DNA of 64,000 bases, taken from assembly GCA_040902445.1 (NCBI GenBank), contig JBBDXJ010000293.1, forward strand, positions 2,075-66,074. The letters are read 5' to 3'. Under the pieces are notes generated by a model. That model did no database searches and was not told the origin of the DNA. It saw nothing but the letters and a program-made list of their open reading frames with translations. Within the stretch, counting starts at the first letter, position 1. Each line of letters opens with the position of its first letter. The DNA comes from Cyclobacteriaceae bacterium. Lineage in GTDB: Bacteria > Bacteroidota > Bacteroidia > Cytophagales > Cyclobacteriaceae. Positions 21,702 through 51,376 of this stretch are shown in pieces. The position numbers and the translations under genes were made by a program.

Positions 21702-21779
21702 TTTATAATCATTATATTGCCTGCCCCAGGGCTTTCCCAGCCGCAATAAATTCATTTATTTAATTTAAAACACATAGCA

Positions 21780-22646: not shown

Positions 22647-22708
22647 CCACGAGTATTCTATTCTACAAGATTCTTCGAACCAGATTTGTCCCTTGCGCAA
22701 TGAGGGGA

Positions 22709-22753
22709 GCCCGCCCGAACCGAGTCTGACCGATACGGTTCGTTCGGGCGGGC
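22709..22753. terminator. GC-rich hairpin between convergent genes
   Basis: GCCCGCCCGAAC (22709-22720) pairs with GTTCGGGCGGGC (22742-22753). A second 7-bp hairpin, GCGCAGG...CCTGCGC, follows at 22761-22786. Confidence 0.5.
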
Positions 22754-22820
22754 TTCGCTTGCGCAGGCTTACGCGCAAACCTGCGCTCAGTATGACGGGT
22801 TCGAAAGGGGCGAGTCGAGC

Positions 22821-23723
22821 CTACCTTTTTCTTGAGCCCAGATCCTGCTCTTTCAAAAATTCGATGAAATGTCTGATGTGTGTGTCGGTGCGGTTTTGCG
22901 TCAGGCATGCGATATACCAGCTGCGGTAAAAACCATTTTTTGTGATCCTCACCTGCTTCAGCAATGAGCTGCCCTGCAGAAATGGTTTTACGAGCCATTT
23001 CGAAAGCACCGTAATTCCAATCCCGGCTTTCACAAGTTCAACCCTCGCCTCCGTCAACTGCATTTTTGTGACCCGCGCCGGCGTTACATTTTGCGGAATC
23101 AGCATATTCTGGGCGAAGTAATCACACTCAAACGCTTCTTTGTAAATGATCACGTTTTCATTTTCGAAATCCTTGGGCCTGACATACGGCTTTGATGCTA
23201 ATGGGTGGTCGTGAGCTACGAGCAGGATCTGCTCATCGTCAAATACTTTTTCGAAGGTGACACCGTTGTCCTCACTTTTATTGTTGGTAATAGCAAGATG
23301 GATCTTGCCTTTCAGCAAAAAGTCGATCGGGTCGTTCATCGCTTCGGTTACAATATCAATTTCAACGTTCGGAGATGTCTGATGAAATTTTTTCATTAAC
23401 ACCGGAAGCCAGTGATAGCATGTGTAGCATTGAGTACTTACCCGTAATTCGCGAACTGAATTGTTGTGATGCTTCAGCTGTTTCTCGATCGCCTGAAGCT
23501 TTGGCAAAATTTCTTCGGATGCATTCAGGATCATCTTGCCGGCATCTGTCAGGATCATAGTCTTATTGATACGCAAGAACAGCGGGACACCTAATCTCGA
23601 TTCTATTTCTTTCAGCTGGTGACTTAAAGAGGGCTGTGTGAGAAACAACTTCTTCGAGGCTTTCGTCATATTGCCCGTATCGGCGATTTCTTTGATAAGG
23701 TGCAGATGCTTAATTTCTATCAT
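22821..23723 (-). CDS. LysR family transcriptional regulator
   Basis: 300 aa. N-terminal wHTH ASKKLFLTQPSLSHQLKEIESRLGVPLF and a C-terminal substrate-binding domain. Confidence 0.85.
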   Translation of the reverse strand: MIEIKHLHLIKEIADTGNMTKASKKLFLTQPSLSHQLKEIESRLGVPLFLRINKTMILTDAGKMILNASEEILPKLQAIEKQLKHHNNSVRELRVSTQCYTCYHWLPVLMKKFHQTSPNVEIDIVTEAMNDPIDFLLKGKIHLAITNNKSEDNGVTFEKVFDDEQILLVAHDHPLASKPYVRPKDFENENVIIYKEAFECDYFAQNMLIPQNVTPARVTKMQLTEARVELVKAGIGITVLSKWLVKPFLQGSSLLKQVRITKNGFYRSWYIACLTQNRTDTHIRHFIEFLKEQDLGSRKR

Positions 23724-23734
23724 TAGATTTACTT

Positions 23735-23758
23735 ATGAATACTATGAAATTAATTCAT
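23735..23758. promoter_or_regulatory. inverted repeat ATGAAT-N12-ATTCAT in the LysR/permease divergent intergenic region
   Basis: 6-bp arms at 23735-23740 and 23753-23758, 12 nt upstream of the LysR start codon. Geometry is similar to a LysR T-N11-A site. Confidence 0.3.
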
Positions 23759-23799
23759 TTTTTCGATTAATACAAACAGGCTAAATTGACGGTAAACAA

Positions 23800-34804: not shown

Positions 34805-36626
34805 ATGTTTCAAAACTATTTCAAGATTGCCTGGAGAAATATGTCCAGGCAAAAAATGTACACCTCCATCAAGATCGGAGGTTTTGCCATCGGATTGGCT
34901 ACGTGTATTGTCATTGGGCTCTTCATCCGGCATGAATTGAGTTATGAATTACATATAAAGGATGCACAAAACATCTATCGCGTTTACAACCAGTACGAAG
35001 ATGGAAGCGGAACTGCCGTTCCCGCTCCATTTGCATCAATATTGAGGGCGGATTATCCCGAAATTGAAAAAGTTGCCAGGCTTATTCCCTACAAATGGTT
35101 CAAATGCAGGAAATAATCTCATGCGCCGGGACGATCAGCTTGAAAATACTTTTGAAGAAGGTTTCGCATATGCCGACCCGGAGTTACTAGAGATTCTGGA
35201 GATCCCCATGGTCTATGGCAGTCCTGCGCACGCGCTGGCCAAACCCAACACAATTGTTTTGGCAAAAAGCAAAGCCGATAAATATTTTCCGAATGAAGAC
35301 CCTGTCGGAAAAACAATCATTCTCAACGATGACAAGTCCCAGCCTTTTACAGTTGGAGGTGTGATGGAGGATTTCCCCCGGACATCGCACCTGCAATTTG
35401 ATTTTTTCATTACCCTTACCGGTAAAGAGTTTTGGCAGGGCGAACAGACTAGCTGGTGTTGCTGGAATTACAACCCGTATATCAAAGTAAGGCCTGGCAC
35501 AGATCCGGCTGAACTGGAAAAAAAATTACTTGCCATGAAAAATATCTATATCGACTACCTCGCGAAGGAAGGAAATCAATCTGTAAATGACGTACGCAAG
35601 TATCTTTTTTTTGTTTTGCAACCTGTGCGTGATATTCACTTGTTTTCAGCAGATATCGGTGACGCGATAGAACATGGCGACATCCGCTACATATGGCTAT
35701 TTGGTGGTATTGCCTGCTTTATCCTTGCGCTTGCCTGCATCAACTTCATCAATCTTTCCACAGCGAAGTCGGCAAACCGGGCTAAGGAAGTTGGATTGCG
35801 AAAAGTTGTGGGTTCAGTCCGGAGTCATCTTGTCAGGCAGTTCCTGACTGAATCGGTGATCTTCAGCATGGTCTCATTTGTTCTTGCCGTTTTTCTGGTA
35901 TGGATTGGCTTGCCTTACTTTAATGATCTCGCGGGCAAAGCCCATTCAATTCCCTGGGGAGCATGGTGGCTTTTCCCCCTTCTGACTGCATCGGCGCTCT
36001 TCATAGGAGTGCTTGCCGGCATTTACCCTGCATTTTATCTTTCATCCTTCAAACCGATCGATGTTCTCAAAGGAAGCATCGCGCGAGGTAGCAAAACTTC
36101 AGGCATGAGGAGTGTGATGGTTGTATTTCAGTTTACGACCTCAATCGTACTGATCATCGGCACGTTCATTATTTACCGCCAGATGGATTTTATTCTCAAT
36201 AAAAAGATCGGGTACGATAAAGACCAGGTAGTGATGCTGCAGGGCGCGAATACTCTTGGTAAACAGCAGCAAACTTTTAAAGACGAGTTGTTGCGCCTTT
36301 CGGGTGTACAACATGTTACAGTCAGCCAGTATTTTCCTGTGGATGGAACAACACGTGATCAGAACATGTTTTATCGCGATGGGAAATCCCAGGAAGAAAA
36401 AGGCTTTGGCGCACAACGGTGGTATGTTGATGAAGATTACCTCAGCACGTTAGCCTGGTATATGATGCAGAAATGGCTTCAGGATTACAAATACCGCACC
36501 GAGATCACCTGGGATGTTTTTGCGATCTCGGGATTTCTCGCTGTATTCATTGCCTTGCTTACGGTGAGCTACCAATCCATCCGGGCAGCTTTGGCAAACC
36601 CAGCGAATAACCTGAGGTCCGAATAA
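34805..36626 (+). pseudogene. MacB/FtsX-type permease pseudogene (frameshift plus ~200-aa internal deletion)
   Basis: The N-terminal 103-aa ORF (MFQNYFKIAWRNMSRQK...) and the 520-aa ORF overlap in different frames at 35064-35116. After ...YVDEDYLSTL (about 36450) the sequence jumps directly to the family C-terminus AWYMMQKWLQDYKYRTEI...LRSE. The rest of the second periplasmic domain and most of the second FtsX module are missing. Confidence 0.75.
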
Positions 36627-38165: not shown

Positions 38166-38334
38166 AAAGTCCACCGTTCACAGATGACGGCCCAGCCATT
38201 GGAGGGGAGACCACCCGGCAACCGGCAACTGGCGCCCGATTATTGACCCGTTATACATTAATGTTTATATTGAATTCTATATCTGAGGAGCCCGAAAAGT
38301 GCTGTCTCCCGTTCACTTAACGTACCTGTTTAAT

Positions 38335-40533
38335 ATGAAATCAAAAAAACTATTCATCAGCTCAGAGGTTCCTTTGAAGGAATCATTCAATTTAAGAAAG
38401 ATTCTTTACATCACTTTCCTGGTCGCATTGATTGCGTTGGATTCATGCAATCCAACATCAGAATCCGTCCAGGTAGAGGACGATGATATCGGAGGAGTTG
38501 TCACCGGACCTGATGGTCCCGAAGCAGGAGTGTGGGTGATCGCCGAAACTCATGACCTTCCTACCAGATATGCCAAGATTGTTGTCACTGATGATAAGGG
38601 ACAATATTTGATACCCGATCTTCCCGACGCGAACTATTCGGTCTGGGTGCGCGGTTATGGATTGGTGGATTCTCCCAAAGAAGAAGCAAAACCCGGCAGC
38701 GTTCTGGACCTCGAAGCCGTGGTAGCACCAAATCCTCGGGCAGCCGCCGAATATTATCCCGCAGGCTACTGGTTTTCCCTGCTCAATGTGCCGGACAAGA
38801 GCAAGTTCCCCGGTACAGGACCGGAAGGAAATGGCATATCTCCCAACATTAAAAATCAGGCTAATTTTTTAAGAAATATAAAATCAGGTACGTGCCTGGC
38901 CTGTCATGCAATGGGCACAAAAGGCACGCGCGAGTTTCAGGCATCGCTGGGAAAATTCGCATCTTCAACCGAGGCATGGGAGAGACGTTTGGCGTCCGGG
39001 CAGGCCGGAGGAAGCATGATCTCTTCCACACACGGGCTTGGGCGCGAGGAAGTTTTGAGGATGCTGGCAGACTGGACGGACCGGATCGCTGGAGGTGAAA
39101 TTCCAGAAGCTCCGCCGAGGCCGGCAGGAGTTGAAAGAAATGTTGTCATAACACAATGGGACTGGGCTGATCCCAAAGCATACCTTCACGATGTCGTCTC
39201 CACCGACAGAAGAAACCCAACAGTGAACGCGAACGGTCCGCTCTATGGTGCACTGGAAGTCAGTGCCGATTATATTCCAGTACTCGATCCGGTGAAGCAC
39301 GATGCGAGCCGCATACCATTAACGGTGCGCGATCCGGAAACCAAACCTGCTTCCGGTCCGGAGATGCCACAACCCTCTCCCTATTGGGGAGATGAGCCCA
39401 TATGGAACAGCAAGACCAATGTTCACAATCCCATGTTGGATGAAAAAGGCCGGGTCTGGATTACCGCTACGGTGCGTCCACCTGAAAATCCTGATTTTTG
39501 TAAAGAAGGGTCCGATCATCCTTCCGCCAAACAATTCCCGATGAACAGGGCCGGGCGACATCTCGGTGTCTATGACCCTAAAACAAAAAAATATACGCAC
39601 ATCAGCACCTGCTTCAGCACACACCACCTCATGTTTGCTGAAGATGAAAACAACACCCTGTGGACGAGCGGTGGAGGAGAAGTGATCGGATGGCTTGACA
39701 CGAAAAAGTATGACGAGACGGGAGATGAAGAGGCCTCGCAAGGTTGGACACCACTTATTCTGGATACCAATGGAAATGGCAAACGCGACAAATACAAAGA
39801 ACCCAATGATCCCGTTGATCCTAAAATGGACAAGCGCATTGCCAGGGGACTTTATGCATGCTCTCCCGCGCCCGACGGCTCGGTCTGGGGCTCTTCTTTA
39901 GGATATCCCGGCGCCCTCATCCGCCTGAATCCGGGATCGAATCCATCAGAAACGGCCCTGGTAGAATATTACGAACTTCCCTTGAATGACAAAGGTGAAC
40001 CTGTCGAAGGATTTTCACCCCGCGGCATGGATGTGGACCGGAATGGTGTGGCCTGGGTTGCACTTGCCAGTGGTCACCTTGCAAGCTTCGACCGGAAGAA
40101 ATGCAAAGGATCCCTTAATGGTCCGGATGCTACAGGTCAGCATTGTCCGGAAGGATGGACTTTCTATACAGAACCACTTCCACAACTAAAAGGATTAAAA
40201 GAATCCGGAAGCGCTGAGTCAAGCTACTACACCTGGGTTGATCAGTTCAATACTCTTGGATTGGGTGAAAATATTCCCATCAATACCGGCAATGAATCCG
40301 AAGCGCTGCTGGCACTGAAGGATGGAGAATGGGTTAAATTACGTGTACCCTATCCGTTGGGATTTTATACGAAGTGGATGGACGGAAGGATCGATGATCC
40401 AAACGCCGGCTGGAAAGGCCGGGGAATATGGGCAACGATAAGCACCCGCGCACCATTCCATATGGAAGGAGGCAAAGGCACTACCAGCAAAGTATTTAAG
40501 TTCCAGCTCAGGCCGGATCCGCTGGCGAAGTAG
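38335..40533 (+). CDS. lipoprotein with a carboxypeptidase-regulatory-like domain and one c-type heme motif
   Basis: ATG at 38335 gives MKSKK...LIALDSC (lipobox). VVTDDKGQYLIPDLPDANYSVWVRGYG is CarboxypepD_reg-like. One CXXCH motif (SGTCLACHAMG, about 38892-38924). Long C-terminal region of unknown fold. Confidence 0.6.
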   Translation: MKSKKLFISSEVPLKESFNLRKILYITFLVALIALDSCNPTSESVQVEDDDIGGVVTGPDGPEAGVWVIAETHDLPTRYAKIVVTDDKGQYLIPDLPDANYSVWVRGYGLVDSPKEEAKPGSVLDLEAVVAPNPRAAAEYYPAGYWFSLLNVPDKSKFPGTGPEGNGISPNIKNQANFLRNIKSGTCLACHAMGTKGTREFQASLGKFASSTEAWERRLASGQAGGSMISSTHGLGREEVLRMLADWTDRIAGGEIPEAPPRPAGVERNVVITQWDWADPKAYLHDVVSTDRRNPTVNANGPLYGALEVSADYIPVLDPVKHDASRIPLTVRDPETKPASGPEMPQPSPYWGDEPIWNSKTNVHNPMLDEKGRVWITATVRPPENPDFCKEGSDHPSAKQFPMNRAGRHLGVYDPKTKKYTHISTCFSTHHLMFAEDENNTLWTSGGGEVIGWLDTKKYDETGDEEASQGWTPLILDTNGNGKRDKYKEPNDPVDPKMDKRIARGLYACSPAPDGSVWGSSLGYPGALIRLNPGSNPSETALVEYYELPLNDKGEPVEGFSPRGMDVDRNGVAWVALASGHLASFDRKKCKGSLNGPDATGQHCPEGWTFYTEPLPQLKGLKESGSAESSYYTWVDQFNTLGLGENIPINTGNESEALLALKDGEWVKLRVPYPLGFYTKWMDGRIDDPNAGWKGRGIWATISTRAPFHMEGGKGTTSKVFKFQLRPDPLAK

Positions 40534-40556: not shown

Positions 40557-41309
40557 TTAAGCTCTTTTCTTTATTAGATCCAGAATGCCGTTGATAAAAG
40601 TCAGGGGGTGGATGGGATTTCCCGGCACGTAAAGGTCGACAGGGTGACGATCGAGAAACGTTCGATTAACGGCGGGGCTATCATCAAATAAACCACCGCT
40701 GATCGCATCGGTTCCTGCCAGAATGATGACTTTCGGATCGGGTATGGCGTCGTAACAAAGCTCTAATGGTTTTGACATGTTTTCCGTGATCGGACCCGTG
40801 ATCACGATTCCATCGGCATGCCGTGGCGATGCGACAAATTCGATACCGAACCGGCTCATATCAAAGTTCACGTTTCCGCAGGCGTTTAATTCCAGTTCGT
40901 TGCTGTTGTCGCCACCCGCGGAAACCTGGCGCAATTTTAATGACCCTTTAAAAAAACCGGCGATCTCTTTCCTGACCAGGGCAGGATCGGGTGTGATGGC
41001 TTTTAGAGCACCCTCGTGAATAATCAATCCTTTCCTGTCGTTGGTTGCCATCCGGTAATCTTTTGAAAATTTAATTTTATTCGGAAAGGCCCTGGCACAT
41101 TCCCCGCAAAAGGCGCATCTTCCGAGATCCAGTGTGAGGGGATTTGAACGGATGGCGCCTGTCGGACAAAAATCAATCAGTGCGTTTTCATCTACTTTGT
41201 CATGAGTGATTTCTGGTACTCCTCTGAATACGCCAGGAACTTCCGCTTTTGTTGGATCGGGAATGTATTGCTTTCCCTGACGTATTAATATTTTTATGTT
41301 GCCAATCAT
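40557..41309 (-). CDS. ferredoxin-like / NuoB-HycG-like small-subunit fusion lacking the proximal [4Fe-4S] Cys ligands
   Basis: 250 aa. The C-terminal part aligns to hydrogenase-3/4 small subunits (RFGIEFVASPRHADGIVITGP, PKVIILAGTDAISGG, VDLYVPGNPIHP), but the four Cys positions read D, N, D, N. The N-terminal part has DFCPTGAI and CAFCGEC. Confidence 0.75.
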   Translation of the reverse strand: MIGNIKILIRQGKQYIPDPTKAEVPGVFRGVPEITHDKVDENALIDFCPTGAIRSNPLTLDLGRCAFCGECARAFPNKIKFSKDYRMATNDRKGLIIHEGALKAITPDPALVRKEIAGFFKGSLKLRQVSAGGDNSNELELNACGNVNFDMSRFGIEFVASPRHADGIVITGPITENMSKPLELCYDAIPDPKVIILAGTDAISGGLFDDSPAVNRTFLDRHPVDLYVPGNPIHPLTFINGILDLIKKRA

Positions 41310-41318
41310 AGATTGCTT

Positions 41319-42824
41319 TTAGAGATCATGACCACAATAACTTAAGTCAAAGCTTTTGTTGGATATTGGAAAATCCGATATCTCATTATTTCTTACGGCC
41401 ATGGCCACTGTCAGCCAATTGTGCATAGAGGGATCTTTGATCCGATATTGATACAGTTCTCCTTTTTCGTCAGTGATGGCGCAGTGACAGATTTCTCCTC
41501 TCCATCCCTCCGTTAATGAAATTCCGAAGGTTTCGGGTTGTGGATGCAACAAAGGTGCACGCGTGGTTATTTCCGGCGGGATTTTGTGGATGATCTTCCG
41601 CAGGTAATAAAGTGTTTGCACAATCTCGTCGTGCCTGATCTTTGTGCGGCTGTAAACATCTCCGTGGTGTTTGATTATGGAAATCGGTGAAAATTCGTTG
41701 TACAGACCATGGGGATGTGTAGTCCGGATATCACGCATGAGCCCAGTGCCGCGGGCGGATATACCTACTGCCCCCAGGGACAAGGCAACATCATGGCTGA
41801 TTACACCTGTTTTTTCCAGCCGCGCCAGTGCACTGGGAAGGGTATGAAACTCTTTCCACATTTGATCAAAATCAGACTCATATTCCTGAAATAATTCTTC
41901 CAGCCTCACAGCAAGCGATTTGGTAAAATCAAAAGGGTTGTATCCGGGACGAATCAGGCCTTTCGCCAACCGGTTTCCACACCACTCCTGGAAGAAATTT
42001 ATCAAAGGCGTTCGCAGCCTTCCAAACACAGCGCTTCCGAGTTGGTAGCCAATGTCTGTGCAGATGGCGCTGAGGCCTCCCGTGTGCATTGCCAGCCTTT
42101 CTAATTCTATAGCAATTGTTCTCGAAAAGTGCAGGTCGGGAGGAGCAGTATAGCCGCATAAATTTTCCCAAAGATTAACAAAAGCCGTGGTATGACCCGC
42201 CACATTATCTCCCGCAATTGATTCCGCCAGGAGGGTGCGTTGCAGTAGTTTATGCTTTGACAAAAAAAGTTGCTCTATACCGCGGTGTTGATATCCGAGT
42301 TGTATCTCGAGGTGAAGAATTTGCTCACCATTGCAGATAAACCGGAAATGACCCGGTTCAATAATACCCGCATGAATGGGACCGACACCAACTTCATGTA
42401 GCTCTTCACTTTCTATCTGGTAAAAGGGATAATTCCCGATCACTGAATTTTTGTCTGCCCTGTCAGACGGATACCGCACAGGTTTTAACCACGGATGGTC
42501 TGAGAATTTCAATCCAAAGTTTTCATGCAAAACTCTCTCAAACACATGAAAGCTTAAATGATTTGCTGTAAAGGAAGGATAGGTTTGTGCGGATCTGGCA
42601 GAGATTTCGGAACTGGATACACAAATAGACGCATTACTGTCGTTGGCGATGCAGCAAATCAGCTTTAATTTTTCGTTGTGAGTGAACCCAAAATAATGAG
42701 CGCAATGATTCACCTCTTTACGGACGAGGCCGGTATTGAGCTCGAGAAAATCATCATACTTTAAGACTGGAATGGCTTGAAGGGCAATCGTACCGTTATT
42801 TGCTATGTTTATGTATTGACTCAT
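41319..42824 (-). CDS. NuoC-NuoD / HycE-HyfG-like large subunit lacking the NiFe-binding cysteines
   Basis: 501 aa. NuoC-like ERVLHENFGLKFSDHPWLKP, then the group-4-type VGPIHAGIIEPGHFRF. The L1 position reads ESIAGDNVAGH, not CGxCxxxH. The C-terminus reads FDLSYCGHDL, not DPCxxCxDR. Confidence 0.8.
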   Translation of the reverse strand: MSQYINIANNGTIALQAIPVLKYDDFLELNTGLVRKEVNHCAHYFGFTHNEKLKLICCIANDSNASICVSSSEISARSAQTYPSFTANHLSFHVFERVLHENFGLKFSDHPWLKPVRYPSDRADKNSVIGNYPFYQIESEELHEVGVGPIHAGIIEPGHFRFICNGEQILHLEIQLGYQHRGIEQLFLSKHKLLQRTLLAESIAGDNVAGHTTAFVNLWENLCGYTAPPDLHFSRTIAIELERLAMHTGGLSAICTDIGYQLGSAVFGRLRTPLINFFQEWCGNRLAKGLIRPGYNPFDFTKSLAVRLEELFQEYESDFDQMWKEFHTLPSALARLEKTGVISHDVALSLGAVGISARGTGLMRDIRTTHPHGLYNEFSPISIIKHHGDVYSRTKIRHDEIVQTLYYLRKIIHKIPPEITTRAPLLHPQPETFGISLTEGWRGEICHCAITDEKGELYQYRIKDPSMHNWLTVAMAVRNNEISDFPISNKSFDLSYCGHDL

Positions 42825-44254
42825 ATCTTCCGGGGCAAATGTTGAGTTGCGTCATGGATGAGATTAACGAGTTCTACGGGAGGATTCAATCCCAGGTAAA
42901 CCACCAGCGCAAGCAGCATAAACTGGCTGAGGGATTCTGCAGGGTGAATCTTTTTTATATTTTCTTCCTTGAAACCCAGCGTCCTGATGAAAAGCATTTT
43001 AAAAATATTTTTTCCCAAAGACCAGATAATCAGCGTGAGAAATAATAACACCAGGATGAGTAACCATATTTTCCCAGATTCAAAAATAGAGCGGAATATC
43101 AGGAACTCGCTGATGAACATTCCTGAAGGTGGCATTGCGGTTATGATAAAAAAGGCGAATAACAATACCATCGCGCCGGGTGTGTTGTATGCAAAATAAT
43201 TTCCGATATCGTAAATACTTTTGCTCCGGTAGATGCGGTAAACCTGGTCAACCTGAAAGAATAAAGCTGGTTTGGCAAAGGAATGTAACACAAGGTGGAG
43301 GATGGCCGCATAATAACCGGCGCCGCCCGAGGCCACACCCAGCATGACAATACCCATGTGTTCCACCCCTGAGTAGGCAAGCATGCGCTTCAGGTTTTTT
43401 ACACGCAAAATGTAAACCGCTGATACGAAAATGGAGATCAATCCTCCGATGACAAGGATCGTATTGGCCCACTGTGCGATCGAAGTGTTGGCCATTACTT
43501 CATAAATCCGGAATATGCCGAGGAATCCAACGTTGACCAATACACTTGCCAGTAGCGCACCTGCTGGTCCCGGCGCTTTATCTTTTGCATCAATTCCCAC
43601 CGTATACATCGGAACCAATCCTGCCTTAGCCGTGAAACCAGTGAAGATGAAAAGGAAAGCAAGCTTGAGCCAAAACGGGTTCAGCAATGGGGCATCGATG
43701 ATCAGTGCCTGGTAGGAGAGCTCTTTAAATCCCTGGTGTTGAAGGGCGATGCTCAGGAAAAGTATACCAACAAATACCAGGGTAATGCTTATGGAACAAA
43801 CAAATATATATTTCCAAGTGGCTTCCAGTGTACGTTCATTTCGATTGTGATAAACTAAAGCCGACGTACTGAGTGTTGTCAACTCCACAAAGATCCAGGT
43901 TACAGCAAGATGATTTGATAAATAGGCAGCACTGAGGGAAGCGATTAGAATCACCATTGCGGCATAATAAATGCCCCGTTGTCTCGGGATATCTTTCCGG
44001 TTATTGAAAAAAACATAGCTGTGATAGAACGCGGGCACACATACGATGCTGAGAATTCCCAAAAGAATAAGGCTCAATGGATCAAAGGTGAAATATTCAA
44101 GCGATGCGAGGTCCCGGCGGTTGAATGCGTGGACCGTTAGCACCCACTGCAACAGGATAAATGACCAAACCGCGAAATAGCTTATAATTCTTTTCTGTGC
44201 GAAGAAAAGTATCAGGCTTAAAACAAAACTCAGAATCAAATATATTCCAATCAT
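42821..44254 (-). CDS. HyfF/NuoN-like antiporter-type membrane subunit
   Basis: 477 aa, polytopic. WIFVELTTLS (TM5 Glu), FTAKAGLVPMY (TM7 Lys), HSFAKPALFF. 4-nt overlap with the large-subunit gene. Confidence 0.75.
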   Translation of the reverse strand: MIGIYLILSFVLSLILFFAQKRIISYFAVWSFILLQWVLTVHAFNRRDLASLEYFTFDPLSLILLGILSIVCVPAFYHSYVFFNNRKDIPRQRGIYYAAMVILIASLSAAYLSNHLAVTWIFVELTTLSTSALVYHNRNERTLEATWKYIFVCSISITLVFVGILFLSIALQHQGFKELSYQALIIDAPLLNPFWLKLAFLFIFTGFTAKAGLVPMYTVGIDAKDKAPGPAGALLASVLVNVGFLGIFRIYEVMANTSIAQWANTILVIGGLISIFVSAVYILRVKNLKRMLAYSGVEHMGIVMLGVASGGAGYYAAILHLVLHSFAKPALFFQVDQVYRIYRSKSIYDIGNYFAYNTPGAMVLLFAFFIITAMPPSGMFISEFLIFRSIFESGKIWLLILVLLFLTLIIWSLGKNIFKMLFIRTLGFKEENIKKIHPAESLSQFMLLALVVYLGLNPPVELVNLIHDATQHLPRKI

Positions 44255-44266
44255 AGTATTCCCGGG

Positions 44267-44896
44267 TCAATCTCTTAGTTGGCGTAGTTGCTCTGAATCA
44301 TGCTCTTTTAATACATCGCCGATCCTATTAACAAAAATTCCCAGCAAGAGCACGCTGACAAAAATATCAAGCATAATTCCTACGTTGACGACCATAGGCA
44401 TTTCACTTCCTGCCGCCAGGGATAAAACAAAGACGCCATTTTCAATGATGAGAAAACCCATTACATGGGTAATGATTTTCCGTCTGGAAACGATGATATA
44501 CAAACCGGTGAAAAGGGAGGATAGAGCGGCAGCAAAAAATATACCTTTCAGTTGATCTTCATGAAGGGTATTGGACAGCAGAAAAGAACCTATTATTATT
44601 CCGGTAATAATGACAACAGAAATAAAATTTGAAACGAATGGTTCCGCTTCCCTGGTCAGGTTATTTCTTTTGATGACATAATTGAGAAAAACCGGAATAG
44701 CGATCGCTTTGAAAACAATCGTTTCAAAAAGAATAAATATCAGATTGATTACGCTGATCTCAATCAATTCGATGAAGGCAACTCCAAAAAGAGCAACACC
44801 CTGAAAGGCCAGGATGGCGATGTAGGTGTAAAGGCGGTTTGCTACCACCATGTAGATGAGGCTAATGATCAGAATGATAAGCAAGGTGTTGGTCAT
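44267..44896 (-). CDS. HyfE-like (NuoK-related) small membrane subunit
   Basis: 209 aa, about 6-7 TMs. Size and position match hydrogenase-4 component E. Confidence 0.6.
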   Translation of the reverse strand: MTNTLLIILIISLIYMVVANRLYTYIAILAFQGVALFGVAFIELIEISVINLIFILFETIVFKAIAIPVFLNYVIKRNNLTREAEPFVSNFISVVIITGIIIGSFLLSNTLHEDQLKGIFFAAALSSLFTGLYIIVSRRKIITHVMGFLIIENGVFVLSLAAGSEMPMVVNVGIMLDIFVSVLLLGIFVNRIGDVLKEHDSEQLRQLRD

Positions 44897-44908: not shown

Positions 44909-45823
44909 TTAACTGATTCTTCCCAGCATGAGCAGTACTCCCAGGAAAATTAATATTGAAATGGAGGTTAGTGTAAAAATAAACTGAGGGTTGTGGTTCA
45001 TCCGGAATCGCGCCATAAAAGATTCGATTGCACCCGCCACAATCGCAAAAAGAATCTCAACTCCTATAAATAATGGAATTGAATAATACAGGGCCATCCC
45101 CGGTGAAATAAATATATTGGCTATAAGGGCACCGTACATCGCGAACTTAAGATTTGTCGTGTGAAGGATAAGGCCCAGATCGAAACCACTATTATCCAGG
45201 ATCATCACCTCGTGCACCATGGTCAGCTCAAGATGTGTTTTCGGATCATCTACTGGCATGCGGCTGTTTTCAATCATGGCTAAGACGATGAATATAAAAG
45301 TCCCCAGCGCGCCCAGCGTATAAGAGATGTATGATTCAAAATGGAGGCTCTGAAAAATTTCAAAGAATGAAGTTTGACCTGTAAACAATGCAAAAGAACC
45401 CATAAGGATAAAAAAGGCAGGTTCGGCCAGCAACGAATATAGCGCTTCACGGCTGGCACCCATACCTTCAAAGCTGCTGCCTGTGTCCATGGCGGAAATG
45501 ATCATAAAGAATTTTCCCAGCGCCAGAACGTAGGCAAAGAATACAAAATCCCCTGGAAAGGACATGATTCCCGGCTGGTCACCAAATGGGATCAGCAAAA
45601 TCGCTGTGATAACGGTTGCAAAATAAATGCTGGGTGCAATCCGGAAAATGAAACTGGTTGTTTCACTGTAGACAACACCTTTCCGGAACAGGCGCCAGAT
45701 ATCCCGTAAAGGTTGAAAAACGCCAGGTCCTTTTCTTCCGGAGAAGATGCTTTTAGTACGGATCACTATCCCGGTAAAGAATAGGCTGGCCGTAATAATG
45801 AGCATAAAACTGATCATATGCAT
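44909..45823 (-). CDS. HyfC/HycD/NuoH-like membrane subunit
   Basis: 304 aa. SGRKGPGVFQPLRDIWRLFRKG and DTGSSFEGMGASREALYSLLAEP are characteristic of HycD/HyfC. Confidence 0.75.
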   Translation of the reverse strand: MHMISFMLIITASLFFTGIVIRTKSIFSGRKGPGVFQPLRDIWRLFRKGVVYSETTSFIFRIAPSIYFATVITAILLIPFGDQPGIMSFPGDFVFFAYVLALGKFFMIISAMDTGSSFEGMGASREALYSLLAEPAFFILMGSFALFTGQTSFFEIFQSLHFESYISYTLGALGTFIFIVLAMIENSRMPVDDPKTHLELTMVHEVMILDNSGFDLGLILHTTNLKFAMYGALIANIFISPGMALYYSIPLFIGVEILFAIVAGAIESFMARFRMNHNPQFIFTLTSISILIFLGVLLMLGRIS

Positions 45824-45825
45824 GT

Positions 45826-47850
45826 TTAAATCTGCCTGAAAAGATCCAGCACATACCCCATTGCATTTATCAAGAATGGGACGGTGAGAGTAATAAAAAT
45901 GAAAACAACTCCGTATAAAATGTAAAACTGAACACTGCCATTCTGTAAAACCCTGAACTTTTCCATAAAACCTCTGATATATTTTGTTGGAGCGTCAACG
46001 AACAAGGCCTCTATTTTATCATAAGGATGCGTTTTCGAATGTACACGTGTTGGAAACACGCCATGAATGGCTCCTTCCTTTTTATTCATAATGAGAAAAG
46101 GTCGTATCAGCTTCCGGTAGGAACGTACAAAAGAATTTGCGGTGTACTGAAATCTGGATGTTGGAGCGGTGTAACCACATGCCCATGTTGGCCCAACCGC
46201 AACGGTCCTGGTAGCGGTTGTAATTTTTTTTATACCCAGGACAAACATTGCCAGCGCAATTAATACCCATGCCGCCATGCTTACCAGTTGAAGGGTATCG
46301 ATAAATCCTGCCTGAATGGGATCCAGCGTATTTTTGCCAGTAAACAGGAAAACGGGGTTTGCAACGGCCCGAACAAAAAATTGAGGCAACACGCCAATTC
46401 CAATAATAAACAGCACGACAATATATTTTGGAAAAAGTTTGGAAAAGTCCGCTTCCTGAATAGTTTGATTTAAGAAGTGTCGCCTCGTCCCCAGAAAGAC
46501 AATACTGAATGCTTTCGTGAAACACAAAAAAGCCATGCCTCCTATAATGGTCAGACCGAAAATAGCAAAAATCATAACGATCGTATGGCCCAATGACTTC
46601 GAGCCGAAGTCGTTAAAGAGACCGGAATAAATAAAAAACTCTGAAATAAATCCATTGAGCGGTGGGAGACCTGAAATAGCAAGTGCTCCAGTTAGAAATA
46701 AGGCAGACGTCTGCGGCATTTTGTTTATCAACCCGCCCAGCTTCTCTATGTCCATTGTATGCGTAGTCTGGTAAACCGTTCCGGCGCAATAAAATAAAAG
46801 GGATTTAAAGAGTGCGTGATTAAAGGTATGCAACAGTGCTCCTGCAAATCCCGTAAATATCAGGAACGAATTGTTTAAGCCCAGGCCGATGGTACCGAGT
46901 CCGATGCCAATACCAATAATGCCGATATTCTCAATGCTGTGATAAGCCAGCAATTTTTTTAGGTTATGTTGTATAATTGCCAGCATTACTCCATAAATGC
47001 CGGTGATAAGCGAAAGAATCAGGATGGTATAGCCAATCAGTAATTGATTCTCTTTTATTAACAAGAGCATCCGCAGGATGCCAAAGATTCCCAGTTTAAT
47101 AATTACACCTGACATAATACCTGAGATGTGAGCAGGGGCTGCGGGGTGTGCGTATGGTAGCCAGGTATGAAAAGGTACAAACCCGGCTTTAAAAGCAAAT
47201 GCAATAAAAAAACAAATAAAAAGTAAAAAACTTATCGGTGGAATCACCGAGGAACTGTATAAGCCGATCGCACTAAAATTATAAGAGCCGGTCTCGCTGC
47301 TCACCCAAAGAAATCCAATGGTAAGAAATACAATGGTAAGGTGGGATTGGACGAGGTAATTGATTCCTGCCTTGAGTGTTTCGATTTTAGCGTGCTCAAA
47401 GATGATCATGAGGAAAGCTGAAATAGCCATGACTTCCCAGACACATAAAAACGCAAGGGTATTTTGAATGCTGTAAATACCAATCATGGCCATATGATTC
47501 AAAATGTAACCCGAATAGTGAAGGTTAATATTTGAAGACTGATGATGGTAAGGCGTCATGTAACGTATGCCATATAGGAGACCTGTTATCATGGTCAGGT
47601 TCATGATGAGGATAAACCATGCGGATAATGAATCTATCCGTATGAGAATTTCGCCAAAAACAAGACCGCCTCCAACAATGAATTCTAAAGGCGGACCCAC
47701 GAGGGCGTGGAATGCTATCCAGGAACTTACTGCCGCATTTAACAGCACAACCAACATTGCCATGATTCCTTTAGCCTTCCCCTTCAGAAATATGAGAAGG
47801 GCTAAAGAACACAAACTTATCAGGATCGATATGGTTAATATCCATTTCAA
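45826..47850 (-). CDS. HyfB/HyfD/NuoL-M-like antiporter-type membrane subunit (copy 2)
   Basis: 674 aa. WEVMAISAFLM, FKAGFVPFHTWLPYAHPAAPAHISGIMSGVIIKLGIFG, HALFKSLLFY, GFISEFFIYSG. Confidence 0.8.
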   Translation of the reverse strand: MKWILTISILISLCSLALLIFLKGKAKGIMAMLVVLLNAAVSSWIAFHALVGPPLEFIVGGGLVFGEILIRIDSLSAWFILIMNLTMITGLLYGIRYMTPYHHQSSNINLHYSGYILNHMAMIGIYSIQNTLAFLCVWEVMAISAFLMIIFEHAKIETLKAGINYLVQSHLTIVFLTIGFLWVSSETGSYNFSAIGLYSSSVIPPISFLLFICFFIAFAFKAGFVPFHTWLPYAHPAAPAHISGIMSGVIIKLGIFGILRMLLLIKENQLLIGYTILILSLITGIYGVMLAIIQHNLKKLLAYHSIENIGIIGIGIGLGTIGLGLNNSFLIFTGFAGALLHTFNHALFKSLLFYCAGTVYQTTHTMDIEKLGGLINKMPQTSALFLTGALAISGLPPLNGFISEFFIYSGLFNDFGSKSLGHTIVMIFAIFGLTIIGGMAFLCFTKAFSIVFLGTRRHFLNQTIQEADFSKLFPKYIVVLFIIGIGVLPQFFVRAVANPVFLFTGKNTLDPIQAGFIDTLQLVSMAAWVLIALAMFVLGIKKITTATRTVAVGPTWACGYTAPTSRFQYTANSFVRSYRKLIRPFLIMNKKEGAIHGVFPTRVHSKTHPYDKIEALFVDAPTKYIRGFMEKFRVLQNGSVQFYILYGVVFIFITLTVPFLINAMGYVLDLFRQI

Positions 47851-49838
47851 AGTATGTTGGAAAAAGTTGCTAAAATTAAAATCAGCATGAAAAGGAATCC
47901 ATACAGTATATAGAACTGTACCCTTCCGTTATGAACGAACGAGAAGTAATTCATAAAACTAAATAACTGATTGGAAATCCTGTTAAGAATATTTTTTTCA
48001 AAAAATTCCGCATAGTTTGATTGATAACTCCGGTTTGCCGGAAAGACAGTCCGGGGCTCAATTTCCGTATATTTTTTTTCTTCGCCGGTAATGAAAGCAA
48101 ATAACTTGGCAAGGGTTTTTGAAAATGATTTTCCGGTGTATTGAAATTTCTCACCGCGTGCTATATATCCGCCACCCCAGGTCGGAGAGATATTTACCGT
48201 TCTCCCGGAAACGATCCTGGATCGCACGTAGTAGATCGAAGCCGCCAGGAGTATTACTATCAGGGAGGCTATTCCAACTTCAGATACCATGGGAACAAGG
48301 GAGGGTATAATCTCATTTTCAGGAAGTGTATTGCTAAAGCCCTGCGCTATCTTTTCAATGGTCGTCAGTATCAGGGAGGGAAAAATTCCAATGAGCAGCA
48401 TTAAAAACAGAATGAGGAAAAAAGGCAGATGACGGTAAGATAAATATTCCGGTTTTGGATGAATGGTTTTATCACGGGGGTTCCCGAGAAAAATAACACT
48501 AAAGGCTTTTCCAAAAGTCAACAAGGCAATACCACTTACCAAAGCCAGTCCCACGATCGCGGAAATCATAAGTATGTTAAACTTAAAACCCGTTGCGCGA
48601 ATACCTTCTATCAGACCGGAAAACAGTAATAATTTCGAAACAAACCCGTTAAAAGGAGGGAGCCCGCAAATCGCTATGGCTCCGCACAAAAAGAAAAATG
48701 TCGTGGAAGGCATCTTTTTTATTAAGCCACCCAAATGTTCCATGTTCCGCGTATGGGTCAACTGATAGAGATTTCCGGCCGTGAAAAAAAGAAGGGATTT
48801 ATAAAGGGAATGATTCAATAGATGGAGAAGGGCTGCTGAAAAGCCTATCACCAAAAGAATTTGATTTCCGGTTCCTTTCCCGATCAACCCTATGCCAATT
48901 CCCATTCCGACAATCCCCATGTTTTCAATAGTAGAAAATGCAAGGACGCGTTTGTAATCGCGATGAATCGCTCCACTGAGTATTCCGTAAAAAGCAGTCA
49001 AAACTGACAACACAAGAATGCCTGCACCAATGATCACTAAATCCGAGGTCAGATAGGCAGACATTCTCAGAATGCCATATATTCCCATTTTTACCATGAT
49101 GCCTGACATGATCCCTGAAATATGGGAAGGAGCAGCAGGGTGGGCGTGGGGAAGCCACGTATGGAGTGGGATAAATCCTGCCTTTATCCCAAAGCCAATA
49201 AAAAAGAGTAAAAAGAGCCGGGGAGAATCGGCCTGATTGAAGGATCCGATTGACTCAAAGCCAAAAGATCCTCCTGCAACCGAAGCCCATATAAATGCAA
49301 TGGTCAAAAAAACAATCGCAATGTGCATCTGAACCATGTAGGTGATACCCGCATTCAATGTTTTGAACCGGCTGTAATCAAACATCATCAGGAGAAAAGA
49401 AGAAACGGACATGATCTCCCACACCACCAGAAATGCCAATCCGTGTTGAATAGAGCAAACCAGGATTAGGGATGCGTGAAAAATGACGAAGGAAGTCCAG
49501 TGAAGGGAAAGATTACTGCGCTGGGCTGAATACGCCTTCATATAATGAATGCCATACCACGCACCGGTTATACAGGTAATGTTGACGAGCAGGATAAACC
49601 ATGCAGATAAAGGATCGATTCGTAAAAGAATATCTCCAAATACCAAACCGCCGGCAATGGAAAATTCAATTGCCCTGGTTGCAAGAACATGTATTGAAAC
49701 GATCGAAGTAGTGACAGCATTGAGCAACACGAACAACAATGCTACCCTGGATTTTTTTGAGGGAGATAAAAGTGGAATAAGGATAGGGGACAAAACCGTT
49801 AACAACCCGGAATATAAAATCAGAAACCGACCATCCAT
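47847..49838 (-). CDS. HyfB/NuoL-like antiporter-type membrane subunit (copy 1)
   Basis: 663 aa. WEIMSVSSFLL, IKAGFIPLHTWLPHAHPAAPSHISGIMSGIMVKMGIYG, HSLYKSLLFF, GFVSKLLLFSG. Confidence 0.8.
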   Translation of the reverse strand: MDGRFLILYSGLLTVLSPILIPLLSPSKKSRVALLFVLLNAVTTSIVSIHVLATRAIEFSIAGGLVFGDILLRIDPLSAWFILLVNITCITGAWYGIHYMKAYSAQRSNLSLHWTSFVIFHASLILVCSIQHGLAFLVVWEIMSVSSFLLMMFDYSRFKTLNAGITYMVQMHIAIVFLTIAFIWASVAGGSFGFESIGSFNQADSPRLFLLFFIGFGIKAGFIPLHTWLPHAHPAAPSHISGIMSGIMVKMGIYGILRMSAYLTSDLVIIGAGILVLSVLTAFYGILSGAIHRDYKRVLAFSTIENMGIVGMGIGIGLIGKGTGNQILLVIGFSAALLHLLNHSLYKSLLFFTAGNLYQLTHTRNMEHLGGLIKKMPSTTFFFLCGAIAICGLPPFNGFVSKLLLFSGLIEGIRATGFKFNILMISAIVGLALVSGIALLTFGKAFSVIFLGNPRDKTIHPKPEYLSYRHLPFFLILFLMLLIGIFPSLILTTIEKIAQGFSNTLPENEIIPSLVPMVSEVGIASLIVILLAASIYYVRSRIVSGRTVNISPTWGGGYIARGEKFQYTGKSFSKTLAKLFAFITGEEKKYTEIEPRTVFPANRSYQSNYAEFFEKNILNRISNQLFSFMNYFSFVHNGRVQFYILYGFLFMLILILATFSNIL

Positions 49839-49908: not shown

Positions 49909-50178
49909 TTAAAAGAGATTTTCCGGTTCATGTTTCTGCAGGCTTTCAAATATTTTAATTGCTTTTGTGATATTGTCCCTCTCCTGAATAATTACTCCTT
50001 CCGCCTTGAGGTACTTGAGCGCCATAATCATATTCAGAATAAATCCCCGTTTTGAGTTAAAAGCATTCCGCCGGTTTTTCTGTAAATCCTGTATTGCCGC
50101 GCTGACTATTTCGATTAAAATTTTGTCATCCGCAGCGGCTTTAATCTTAATGATGACCGTGTGGCTGAAGTATACCAT
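49909..50178 (-). CDS. hypothetical small soluble protein upstream of the Hyf/Ehr-like operon
   Basis: 89-aa ORF on the same strand, 70 nt upstream of the operon's first gene. No TM segment, no Cys, no family I recognise. Coding status uncertain. Confidence 0.3.
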   Translation of the reverse strand: MVYFSHTVIIKIKAAADDKILIEIVSAAIQDLQKNRRNAFNSKRGFILNMIMALKYLKAEGVIIQERDNITKAIKIFESLQKHEPENLF

Positions 50179-50616: not shown

Positions 50617-50653
50617 TATTGCGTAACTTGCCTGCCGCTAAATTATAAATGTG

Positions 50654-51376
50654 ATGACAACGGGATTTCGGTCAGATGATTTCCGCTATAACACAAAAGG
50701 GATTTTCGAGGGGCTTTCACCGGAGAATCTGCAACCGCTTCGGGATGCAAGCGTTACGCATCGGTATAAAAAAGGCGAAATAGTTTTTCGCGAAGGAGGA
50801 ATCCCTGCGGGAATTTTTTACCTGGTAAGCGGGAAGATAAAAAAGTATAAAACGACCGCAAAAGGCGGTGAACAAATATTTTATGTTTGCACTGCCAGGG
50901 AGCTATTGGGTTATCATGCGATATTGAGTGAGGAACATTATCCTGACTCGGCAGCCACTATTGAAGACTCTGAAATTACTTTTATTCCCAAAGAGAATTT
51001 TCTGAAAGTTTTACAAGCCTCTCCGGTTCTGTCGAATAAACTTTTGAAAACGTTGGGTCATGAGTTCAGTGTTTTTATCAACAGTATTACGAGCCTGGCA
51101 ACCAAATCCGTACGGGAGAGAATAGCGCTGAATCTGTTGATCCTTGATGAAAAATATAAAAGGGAAGAAAAACAGGATGGGCCAGGTGAAATCAATATGT
51201 CGAGGACTGACTTTGCCAATATGGTGGGCACAGCGAAAGAAACGCTGGTAAGGTTACTGCAGCAATTTAAGAGTGAAGGCCTGATTGAGTCCAGTGGCCG
51301 GGCAATCAGAATATTAAACAAAAAAGGGTTGGTACGAGAGGCTAATTTTTCAGGAACGCATTCAAAAATGTTTTGA
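50654..51376 (+). CDS. Crp/Fnr family transcriptional regulator (no FNR-type Cys cluster)
   Basis: cNMP-binding-like domain (GEIVFREGGIPAGIFYLVSGKIK) and C-terminal HTH (RTDFANMVGTAKETLVRLLQQFKSEGLI). Only one Cys, so it is not an Fe-S FNR sensor. Confidence 0.8.
   Translation: MTTGFRSDDFRYNTKGIFEGLSPENLQPLRDASVTHRYKKGEIVFREGGIPAGIFYLVSGKIKKYKTTAKGGEQIFYVCTARELLGYHAILSEEHYPDSAATIEDSEITFIPKENFLKVLQASPVLSNKLLKTLGHEFSVFINSITSLATKSVRERIALNLLILDEKYKREEKQDGPGEINMSRTDFANMVGTAKETLVRLLQQFKSEGLIESSGRAIRILNKKGLVREANFSGTHSKMF

Follow-up and report, generated by a model that had tools for sequence, protein, structure and literature searches.

A 64,000-nucleotide stretch of the Cyclobacteriaceae bacterium assembly GCA_040902445.1 (contig JBBDXJ010000293.1, positions 2,075 to 66,074; hereafter the window) carries a minus-strand operon of seven genes laid out like that of a group-4 [NiFe] hydrogenase, in which the large subunit encoded by the sixth gene has lost the four cysteines that ligate the metal centre. 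What can such a complex do with a hydrogenase pocket from which the metal ligands have gone? An earlier note, made from the sequence alone, had proposed that the protein descends from a hydrogenase rather than from complex I and that its pocket has been repurposed. The analysis described here places the complex, with high confidence, among the energy-converting-hydrogenase-related (Ehr) non-hydrogenases, and points to two further changes: a set of family-specific aspartates in the former NiFe pocket and, in the small subunit, the loss of the ligands of the proximal iron-sulfur (FeS) cluster. The best overall explanation, held at somewhat less than even confidence, is an Ehr complex that moves ions without delivering electrons to the pocket.

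The large subunit and its former NiFe pocket

The large subunit has the HycE/HyfG-type architecture, in which NuoC- and NuoD-like parts are fused. Pfam recognises Complex1_49kDa (E = 3.7e-32), and the NiFe-hydrogenase large-subunit family PF00374 gives no match to this protein at E <= 0.01. The group-4 signature quoted in the earlier note, VGPIHAGIIEPGHFRF, corresponds to residues 147–162. The NuoC-like piece quoted there, ERVLHENFGLKFSDHPWLKP, is present at residues 96–115; its identity is backed by the fold, but not by the sequence score, which at 19.5 bits lies under the 22.5 cut-off of PF00329 (Complex1_30kDa). Residues 1–110 are modelled by AlphaFold2 (AF2, monomer) with a predicted local distance difference test score (pLDDT) of 79–96, and Foldseek alignments of the large subunit to HycE and to fused NuoCD span approximately 490–590 columns.

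The closest relative among all solved structures in a phmmer search is HycE of E. coli formate hydrogenlyase (7z0s_E, E = 1.2e-37), with MbhL second (6cfw_L, E = 3.2e-32), ahead of complex I Nqo4 (E = 9e-23) and MbsL (6u8y_L, E = 4.6e-14). HycE is also the best structural match found by Foldseek, with a template-modelling score of 0.75. The HMMER alignment to 7z0s_E places, with high posterior probability, ‘SIAGDNVAGH’ on ‘RVCGICGFAH’ and ‘FDLSYC’ on ‘LDPCYS’; a MAFFT alignment with HycE, HyfG and NuoCD of E. coli K-12 has the identical register, and in the alignment of the N-terminal motif to MbhL both Cys ligands are likewise replaced. The four NiFe cysteines are thereby read as Ala204, Asn207, Ser495 and Gly498, with the trailing His211 and Asp500 retained and the lone Cys497 sitting one position ahead of the lost second C-terminal Cys, the fourth ligand. 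This is the reading of both motifs that the earlier note had given, the N-terminal one at the codons it had estimated and the C-terminal one with the single Cys displaced by one. Alternative Cys pairs were looked for in the motif regions of the large subunit and none is present. A selenocysteine read-through of the large subunit was considered and rejected, the TAA codon standing directly after the full motif. In the AF2 monomer (predicted template-modelling score 0.78), pLDDT falls below 50 at residues 129–180 (the β1–β2 loop) and 478–501 (the C-terminus), which are the pocket elements.

The quinone ligands of complex I are missing: Tyr87 aligns with Gly205 and His38 with Ile155, and the alignment to E. 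coli NuoCD concurs. Hydrogenase-type Glu156 (in EPGHFR), Arg442, His211 and Asp500 are kept. Together with the ranking of E-values, the HycE fold match, the Hyf-like operon and the existence of Cys-bearing relatives, the absence of these ligands sustains the hydrogenase descent claimed at the outset, and the sequence comparisons show an Ehr complex whose ancestry lies with group-4 hydrogenases, not with complex I.

The substitutions are shared far beyond the window. Thousands of relatives were retrieved from 5.8 billion proteins; the 120 best are 64–100% identical and, where named, all come from Bacteroidota. In an alignment of 30 orthologs (64–79% identity to the window protein, mean column identity 69%), no variation is seen at G205, D206, H211, L494, S495, Y496, G498, D500 and L501; conservation reaches at least 90% at A204 and C497; only Thr, Asn or Ser occurs at position 207; and the motif AGD[T/N/S]V[A/V]GH as a whole is almost invariant. 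The earlier note had allowed for drift, which would leave random residues at these positions in orthologs; the substituted positions are instead nearly invariant. When 1.84 billion cluster representatives were searched exhaustively with HMMER, 491 clusters scored E <= 1e-30. Of the 150 best of these 50%-identity clusters, nearly all, down to 32% identity, carry xGD[S/T/N]xxxH and NKSF[N/D]LSY[C/S/A]GxD[L/R]; S495 and G498 are found in 90–95% across this wider family, roughly half of which has Ser or Ala in place of C497. A rough neighbour-joining tree, crude and built without curated HydDB reference classes, agrees in grouping the large subunit with Cys-less relatives and not with complex I or Mbx. 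Six clusters among the best 150, at approximately 35% identity, keep CG[V/A]C...H and ELCY[S/A]CxD[R/L].

Two further collections provided gene loci. Scanning one genome per prokaryotic species identified 401 stretches that encode a relative, with locus details taken from the best 80 (60–73% identical), all of them metagenome-assembled genomes (MAGs) from Cytophagales, Chitinophagales, Saprospiraceae, Bacteroidales, Lentimicrobiaceae, a few Ignavibacteria and one Marinimicrobia. Metagenomes, scanned with an alignment of distant Cys-less relatives as the seed, added 80 further loci (L084–L163), whose large subunits comprise 76 Cys-less proteins and nine true hydrogenases. The Cys-bearing sister hydrogenases used for comparison are the six clusters (P0195, P0216, P0230, P0243, P0262, P0267) and loci L102, L110, L112, L123, L129, L144, L154 and L162; they are probably the group 4f of the paper on Nitrospira. 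Because the substitutions are nearly invariant and the pattern extends across the family, they reflect selection rather than drift.

Loss of the NiFe cysteines has a name. Ehr complexes are defined as relatives of group-4 hydrogenases whose large subunit lacks RxCGxCxxxH and DPCxxCxxH/R, with NuoH-, NuoL/HyfB- and HyfE-like genes alongside. Published reports place them in Geobacter sulfurreducens (EhrA-S), in Sulfobacillus (six syntenic genes with a large subunit), in comammox Nitrospira, where they are described as near group 4f, and in ammonia-oxidising archaea, Margulisbacteria, Saganbacteria, Melainabacteria, the Candidate Phyla Radiation and Elusimicrobia. The window operon has the corresponding make-up, a Cys-less group-4-like large subunit in a cluster with NuoH-, HyfE-, HyfB- and NuoB-like genes. 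The missing cysteines are therefore the defining trait of a described family and not a new phenomenon; the earlier note had named Ehr only as a comparison and had overlooked that its protein belongs there.

Three aspartates: Less familiar is what has taken the place of the metal site. Cys-less relatives and Cys-bearing sisters were compared in two independent samples, the representative clusters and the metagenome loci. D206, which sits between the two former N-terminal ligand positions, is Asp in 73 of the 76 metagenomic Cys-less relatives and in 95% of Cys-less representative clusters, against Val, Ala or Ile in the nine sister hydrogenases. D257 is Asp in the same proportion of the metagenomic relatives (73/76), against Gly or Phe in all nine Cys-bearing sisters, and D464 in 66 of 76, against Ser or Ala in all nine. 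The three aspartates go together with the loss of the cysteines. The position of D206 is presumably that of the gas-channel Val74 of the D. fructosovorans hydrogenase, if the numbering that we use for its ligands (Cys72/Cys75) holds. V74 of that enzyme is a bottleneck of the gas channel. D257 aligns with Asp139 of Nqo4 (Table 1) and also with the aspartate of ‘FIQDVG’ in E. coli NuoCD; in complex I, Asp139 pairs with His38 at the quinone site. With Cys exchanged for Ala, Asn, Ser and Gly and three aspartates gained, the former metal site now bears carboxylate and hydroxyl groups, and a thiolate-ligated site would have been replaced by carboxylate and hydroxyl side chains. Purifying selection and the three family-specific aspartates show that the pocket matters; the repurposing suggested in the earlier note is plausible but only inferred.

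Several cysteines elsewhere in the large subunit also vary in a concerted manner. In 114 representative clusters, Cys164, Cys282 and Cys497 show a strong tendency to be found together (odds ratio 108 for the 164/497 pair), and just after Arg442-Gly443 lies C446-H447-C448; within the Bacteroidota clade, C446 and H447 are invariant and C448 is conserved to at least 90%. The clade-specific conserved cysteines of the window clade are C41, C57, C58, C446 and C448. The co-occurring cysteines and the C-H-C triplet may mark a novel cysteine-based site close to the former pocket, or may reflect no more than shared ancestry.

Small-subunit FeS ligands and the membrane arm

The small subunit, encoded by gene 7, is a fusion that matches Pfam Oxidored_q6 (E = 2.3e-19, residues 136–244), weakly Fer4, and the NuoB, HycF and HyfH families of NCBIfam. 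Its ferredoxin-like part retains ligands for a single [4Fe-4S] cluster: C48 is the ‘CP’ Cys of a degenerate motif 1, and C65, C68 and C71 form the CxxCxxC of motif 2, in which the fourth Cys has become Phe75. These four cysteines are conserved in 100% of 75 clade sequences, and the other four ferredoxin cysteines are gone from the window protein. In ferredoxin folds with two [4Fe-4S] clusters, these four positions ligate one and the same cluster.

The proximal cluster has fared differently. The ligand segments of HycG, ‘GGC-N-G-C-EIE’, ‘GAC-GNSGG’ and ‘PGC-PP’, read ‘GGD134-N-S-N137-ELE’, ‘GTD201-AISGG’ and ‘PGN231-PI’ in gene 7. In the clade the four positions are D, N/C, D and N in 75 of 75 members, with D134 and D201 invariant and N231 at least 90% conserved, and position 137, Asn in the window protein, is Cys in 89% of orthologs. 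Judged from these residues, the window small subunit cannot bind a proximal [4Fe-4S] cluster, the counterpart of cluster N2 in complex I NuoB. Since all four proximal ligands are gone and a single ferredoxin-type cluster is kept, no electron wire, or chain of FeS clusters, is predicted to reach the pocket in the window clade. The retained cluster is probably the equivalent of N6b of T. thermophilus Nqo9, which adjoins N2; that typical Ehr complexes keep exactly this cluster together with the proximal one is consistent with it. If so, the retained cluster would lie one full cluster position away from the pocket, too far for direct electron transfer.

FeS content is graded across the family. All four proximal Cys are present in 61 of approximately 65 other Ehr and hydrogenase small subunits from the metagenomes. 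A typical Cys-less Ehr complex has two clusters, one in a single-cluster ferredoxin domain plus the proximal one, and a clade whose large subunit is 38% identical to that of the window keeps three. At the other extreme stand L145 (1059–1604, 6691–8268) and L153 (1059–1676, 6819–8423), in which the small-subunit gene lies ahead of the HyfB-like gene: there is no ferredoxin domain and no FeS ligand set, and the proximal positions read S-C-D-D or T-E-G-D. These complexes are apparently without any FeS cluster, and, L145 and L153 having no FeS ligands, the family can apparently dispense with electron transfer. The window clade is accordingly a derived, FeS-poor variant of Ehr, found mainly in Bacteroidota. 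In our assessment the loss of the proximal cluster from the small subunit is more informative than the loss of the NiFe cysteines itself. The additions made here are the aspartate triad, the graded FeS loss and the subtype in which the wire to the pocket is cut; FeS-poor Ehr variants may already have been described in Coppi 2005 or Marreiros 2013, which lie outside the literature covered.

The membrane arm shows no such erosion. The seven genes are tightly packed, with gaps of at most 12 nucleotides and two overlaps of 4 nucleotides. Residues equivalent to NuoL Glu144, Lys229, His334, Lys342 and Lys399 are present in each of the three antiporter-like subunits, the last as Lys or Glu. In gene 1 these are Glu141 in transmembrane helix (TM) 5, Lys219 in TM7, His339, Lys347 and Lys402 in TM12; in gene 2, Glu139, Lys221, His341, Lys349 and Glu404; and in gene 5, Glu124, Lys210, His320, Lys328 and Glu383. 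Gene 3 retains the hydrogenase-type charged residues common to HyfC and HycD, and its TM5–6 loop is unlike that of either, yet invariant inside the clade. Gene 4 keeps acidic residues in common with HyfE. The best NCBIfam match of gene 1 is hydrogenase 4 subunit B (461 bits, under its cut-off), and the matches of the operon to Hyf-like NCBIfam subunits all lie under the equivalog cut-offs. With its proton-relay residues intact, the membrane arm looks functional.

Gene order is identical in those of the 80 related species loci that have long enough contigs, gene 2 being found in every sufficiently long locus. Median identity to the window proteins is highest for the HyfC-like subunit (73%, 64 orthologs), the small subunit (67%), the HyfE-like subunit (66%) and the large subunit (63%), and lowest for the antiporter-like subunits (60% for the HyfF-like one, 54% for gene 2, 51% for gene 1). 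The junction of the peripheral arm and the membrane is therefore the most constrained part, and the pocket substitutions, like the operon as a whole, are under purifying selection. The 80 metagenome loci have a HyfB-HyfC-HyfE-HyfF-large-small layout, with the small-subunit gene sometimes first. Four of them (L086, L092, L117, L126) carry two Ehr-type operons in tandem on one contig; the tandem copies in L086, L092 and L117 come from different subfamilies, one with an AGDT/SYCG large subunit and the other with SGDS/SYSG.

Proposed ion translocation and its rivals

On this evidence we tentatively propose that the complex is a redox-independent ion translocator. Ions would move without electrons reaching the pocket, in a manner closer to that of an Mrp-type secondary transporter than to that of an oxidoreductase. 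The acidic pocket, where the large subunit, the small subunit and HyfC meet, would take up a proton or bind a cation, and this would gate or drive a charge relay that passes via HyfC into the three antiporter-like subunits, and the remaining [4Fe-4S] cluster would be a structural element or a redox sensor with a regulatory role. In its fullest form, the clade would keep a complete peripheral head without an electron path, the NiFe pocket having become a carboxylate-lined chamber (D206, D257, D464, E156) that gates or drives the antiporters; this version is doubtful at present. Equally doubtful is its corollary that the conformational coupling of complex I is here run without redox chemistry in the pocket, with L145 and L153 as the end-point of the trend.

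The strongest argument for a redox-independent translocator is that more than one lineage has lost FeS ligands while its pocket and membrane arm stayed conserved, so that the core activity may not need electron delivery. Within the family, FeS content falls from three clusters to two, one and none, and the remodelled pocket and membrane arm stay conserved; this grading suggests that the conserved activity may not need electrons at the pocket.

Several points weigh against this proposal. That D206, D257 and D464 lie close together and face one cavity, we infer from homology. The FeS losses would also fit a complex that began with a redox function and was co-opted afterwards; the two or three clusters of most Ehr complexes fit an ancestral redox function, and the invariant retained cluster suggests that a redox role survives. 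The window clade may have replaced the lost cluster by something invisible in sequence. MrpB, MrpE, MrpF and MrpG, which are linked to Na+ handling, were not found, and no second ion path that would permit antiport is apparent. Ech-type hydrogenases, too, lack a partner gene and rely on soluble ferredoxin, so that absent neighbour genes do not exclude redox chemistry. Finally, the literature found contains genome-survey mentions and no biochemistry or structure of any Ehr complex, the primary paper (Marreiros 2013) lying outside it.

The rival that survives best, although unlikely, retains redox drive. A soluble donor, for example ferredoxin, would reduce the retained cluster, which would pass electrons to a quinone, another small-molecule acceptor or a cofactor without Cys ligands in the former proximal-cluster or NiFe sites, and proton pumping would follow as in Ech, MBH, MBS or complex I. 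The fully conserved Cys ligands of that cluster, the proximal and one or two ferredoxin clusters kept by most Ehr relatives, and the correspondence of D257 to complex I Asp139 all speak for such a pump; the Asp and Asn residues in the former Cys positions could ligate another metal, and published papers speculate on oxidoreductase or quinone links for Ehr. The electron path speaks against it. Among the proximal ligand positions of the window protein not one is Cys, the retained cluster would stand a whole cluster position farther out, and the two quinone ligands are Gly205 and Ile155. In the geometry of complex I, such a cluster-to-pocket distance exceeds 20 Å, too far for electron transfer. 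Moreover, lineages without any FeS ligands exist (L145, L153), and the operon has no linked genes for electron input or for an acceptor in the 80 genome and 80 metagenome loci, where Fdh, NuoEF and CODH were not found as recurring neighbours.

Considerably less probable is a pocket that binds or transforms something in a non-redox reaction coupled to ion translocation, for example a (de)hydration or the binding of an inorganic ion, by analogy with CO2 hydration by NDH-1/CupA and with DabAB. The carboxylate- and hydroxyl-rich residue set under strong selection would suit such chemistry, and SulP-type permease genes and ArsR-type ion-sensing regulators adjoin Ehr operons in 5 of 80 and in 12 metagenomic loci, respectively. 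The SulP association, however, is infrequent, and neither the window nor any of its 80 close relatives shows it; Pfam and NCBIfam recognise no catalytic domain or motif, and no carbonic-anhydrase-type zinc- or metal-binding signature was seen.

A decaying or purely structural relic, produced by neutral drift or by pseudogenisation of the operon, is most improbable: three of the four ancestral Hyc/Hyf-type metal centres are lost (NiFe, the proximal cluster and one ferredoxin-type cluster), but the seven reading frames are all intact and tightly packed, the operon is kept in at least 80 species genomes of several orders, the substituted positions rank among the most conserved columns, and the peripheral-arm and junction subunits are better conserved than the antiporter-like ones. 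An active [NiFe] hydrogenase with unconventional ligands (Cys497, Asp, His) has a negligible chance of being correct, for although C497 lies beside the old site and Glu156, Arg442 and His211 remain, none of the four canonical ligands is left, C497 is frequently Ser or Ala in the wider family, there is no proximal cluster for the electrons, no C-terminal maturation extension and no Pfam NiFe-hydrogenase family match, and Hyp families are missing from the Pfam matches of the 37 window open reading frames (ORFs) scanned.

If the complex is indeed a redox-independent translocator, it would be a natural system in which the ion translocation or conformational coupling of complex I-like machines can be separated from redox chemistry. 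Ehr complexes are widespread: 401 species-level genomes gave a match to the window subtype alone. The aspartate triad, the graded FeS loss and the cut-wire subtype make the question of the role of Ehr complexes more testable. There is also a practical side. In public sources, Cys-less orthologs are named ‘Ni,Fe-hydrogenase III large subunit’, ‘Hydrogenase-4 component G’, ‘NADH dehydrogenase subunit’ or ‘NADH-quinone oxidoreductase subunit C’; such annotations, like ‘hydrogenase 4’, are likely to mislead metabolic reconstruction, for instance where H2 metabolism is inferred in Bacteroidota MAGs.

Neighbourhood and known systems

Table 1. Features of the operon and its upstream region (window positions; aa, amino acids).
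Feature	Position	Strand	Description
Gene 1, HyfB-type antiporter-like membrane subunit	49838..47847	minus	663 aa; Pfam Proton_antipo_M E = 2.6e-51; overlaps gene 2 by 4 nucleotides
Gene 2, second HyfB-type antiporter-like subunit	47850..45826	minus	674 aa; TTG start
Gene 3, HyfC/HycD/NuoH-like subunit, membrane anchor of the peripheral arm	45823..44909	minus	304 aa; Pfam NADHdh E = 1.3e-31
Gene 4, HyfE-like small membrane subunit, NuoK-like C-terminal half	44896..44267	minus	209 aa; NCBIfam hydrogenase 4 membrane subunit E = 2.3e-16; Pfam Oxidored_q2 weak
Gene 5, HyfF-like antiporter-like subunit	44254..42821	minus	477 aa; overlaps gene 6 by 4 nucleotides
Gene 6, Ehr-type large subunit, NuoC+NuoD fusion	42824..41319	minus	501 aa; ATG start, TAA stop; without C-terminal extension
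Former N-terminal NiFe motif (RxCGxCxxxH)	42224..42192	minus	E201-S-I-A204-G-D206-N207-V-A-G-H211; alignments to HycE, HyfG
Asp257 codon, family-specific aspartate	42054..42056	minus	aligns with Asp139 of T. thermophilus Nqo4 (2fug_4) by HMMER
Asp464 codon, third family-specific aspartate	41433..41435	minus	motif KDPS; RAAT in HycE, RAPS in Nqo4
Former C-terminal NiFe motif (DPCxxCxDR)	41351..41322	minus	F492-D-L-S495-Y-C497-G498-H-D500-L501, then TAA
Gene 7, fused small subunit	41309..40557	minus	250 aa; HyfH/HycF/NuoI-like (ferredoxin-like) N-terminal and HyfI/HycG/NuoB-like C-terminal part
Four retained [4Fe-4S] cysteines C48, C65, C68, C71	41097..41168	minus	register from HyfH/HycF alignment
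Lost proximal-cluster ligand positions D134, N137, D201, N231	40617..40910	minus	alignment to HycG, HyfI, NuoB
Divergent Crp/Fnr-family regulator, possible operon regulator, membership uncertain	50651..51376	plus	Pfam cNMP_binding and HTH_Crp_2
Perfect TTGAT-N4-ATCAA palindrome (FNR/CRP-type box) TTGATTTAAATCAA	50422..50435		in the 812-base-pair gap from the operon start (49838) to the regulator gene; role uncertain

Clustering of the flanking ORFs in the 80 genome and 80 metagenome loci revealed no conserved partner genes besides regulators and a few SulP permeases. For other phyla, published work has proposed a link between formate dehydrogenase (FDH) and Ehr; in the window, Hyp, HycI and Fdh families are absent from the Pfam matches of the 37 ORFs scanned, three ORFs of at least 200 amino acids having remained unscanned. 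A Crp/Fnr-type ortholog is divergently upstream in approximately 10 of 80 related loci. The palindrome in the upstream gap (Table 1) is the sole match in the window, where 0.25 would be expected by chance, and perfect boxes also precede the operon in L039, L058 and L066 (at −141, −102 and −103, respectively), the divergent Crp-type gene being present in two of these three; the other 55 loci lack a perfect box. As a general operator the palindrome was rejected and is not a family feature: a perfect box is upstream in only 3 of 58 loci, and boxes with one or two mismatches are near background. An Rfam scan of the gap found no riboswitch or other RNA.

Other genes stand near Ehr operons. Around the wider Ehr operons (L084–L163), a sigma-54-type response regulator was seen in 13 loci, an ArsR-type helix-turn-helix protein in 12 and a SulP-type anion permease in 5. 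In the window, the unusually long upstream region also contains an 89-amino-acid ORF (49909–50178, minus) with no Pfam match and no counterpart in the 80 related loci. A 744-amino-acid ORF (38299–40533, plus) converges on the operon end across a 23-nucleotide gap; it has a CxxCH haem-c motif (CLACH) and a weak CarboxypepD_reg match and may be a secreted protein with a cytochrome-c domain, and its position beside the operon is not conserved in other loci. Further away, four MacB/FtsX-type permease genes (MacB_PCD and FtsX), three of 792–822 amino acids and one of 520, occupy 14171–26229 and 35064–36626.

Among known systems, other Ehr complexes are the nearest. The window protein has the family-wide xGD[S/T]xxxH and LSYxG motifs and the three aspartates. 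It parts from most of the family in the proximal ligands, D, N/C, D, N in the window clade in place of four Cys, which is not a published defining feature, and its operon has two HyfB-like genes where other Ehr operons have one. The Cys-bearing sister hydrogenases share the operon layout, approximately 35% identity in the large subunit and an INKSF..L.Y...D[LR] C-terminus without extension; in L102, the sole sister locus examined for this, the small subunit is fused and has the same ending as that of the window. Unlike the window protein, they keep CG[V/A]C..H and CYSC, and the proximal-cluster Cys are present in all six loci that cover those columns. Their ferredoxin-type motifs vary, with both present in L102 and a single CxxCxxC in L112 and L129.

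E. coli hydrogenases 3 and 4 (HycE, HyfG; 7Z0S) share the NuoC+NuoD fusion, the gene order hyfB-C-(D)-E-F-G-H-I, the GPxH..EPGHFR loop, the PRG-type arginine and the D-x C-terminal end. At 24% identity to them, the window protein lacks both the NiFe Cys and the 32-residue extension for cleavage by HycI. Compared with formate hydrogenlyase, the window operon has no HycB/HyfA or formate dehydrogenase partner, its HyfH and HyfI are fused, and one of three clusters is left. Complex I NuoD/Nqo4 resembles the window protein in its fold and in the loss of the NiFe Cys, and shares the Asp257/Asp139 position and the charged antiporter residues, whereas the window complex has no quinone ligands, N2 ligands, NuoA, NuoJ or NuoEFG and is much closer to hydrogenases in sequence.

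MBH (6CFW) and MBS/Mbx (6U8Y) of P. furiosus likewise join group-4-type modules to antiporter-like subunits. MBS is another hydrogenase-derived complex that is not known to make H2, and both MBH and MBS keep all three FeS clusters. Their Mrp-type Na+ module is absent from the window complex, whose membrane subunits are of Hyf type only; Pfam and NCBIfam found no MrpB, MrpE, MrpF or MrpG among the operon proteins, which beyond the antiporter-like subunits have only a NuoK-like segment, and in a fragment search the C-terminal 68 residues of the large subunit gave no match to the MbsL C-terminus. The working analogy for a translocator that runs without redox chemistry in its pocket is the Mrp antiporter, which likewise has several MrpA/MrpD-like subunits and the shared Glu/Lys relay and needs no electron transfer. 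Mrp antiporters have no NuoH-, NuoD- or NuoB-like subunits; the window complex has all three, and is therefore not a member of the Mrp family.

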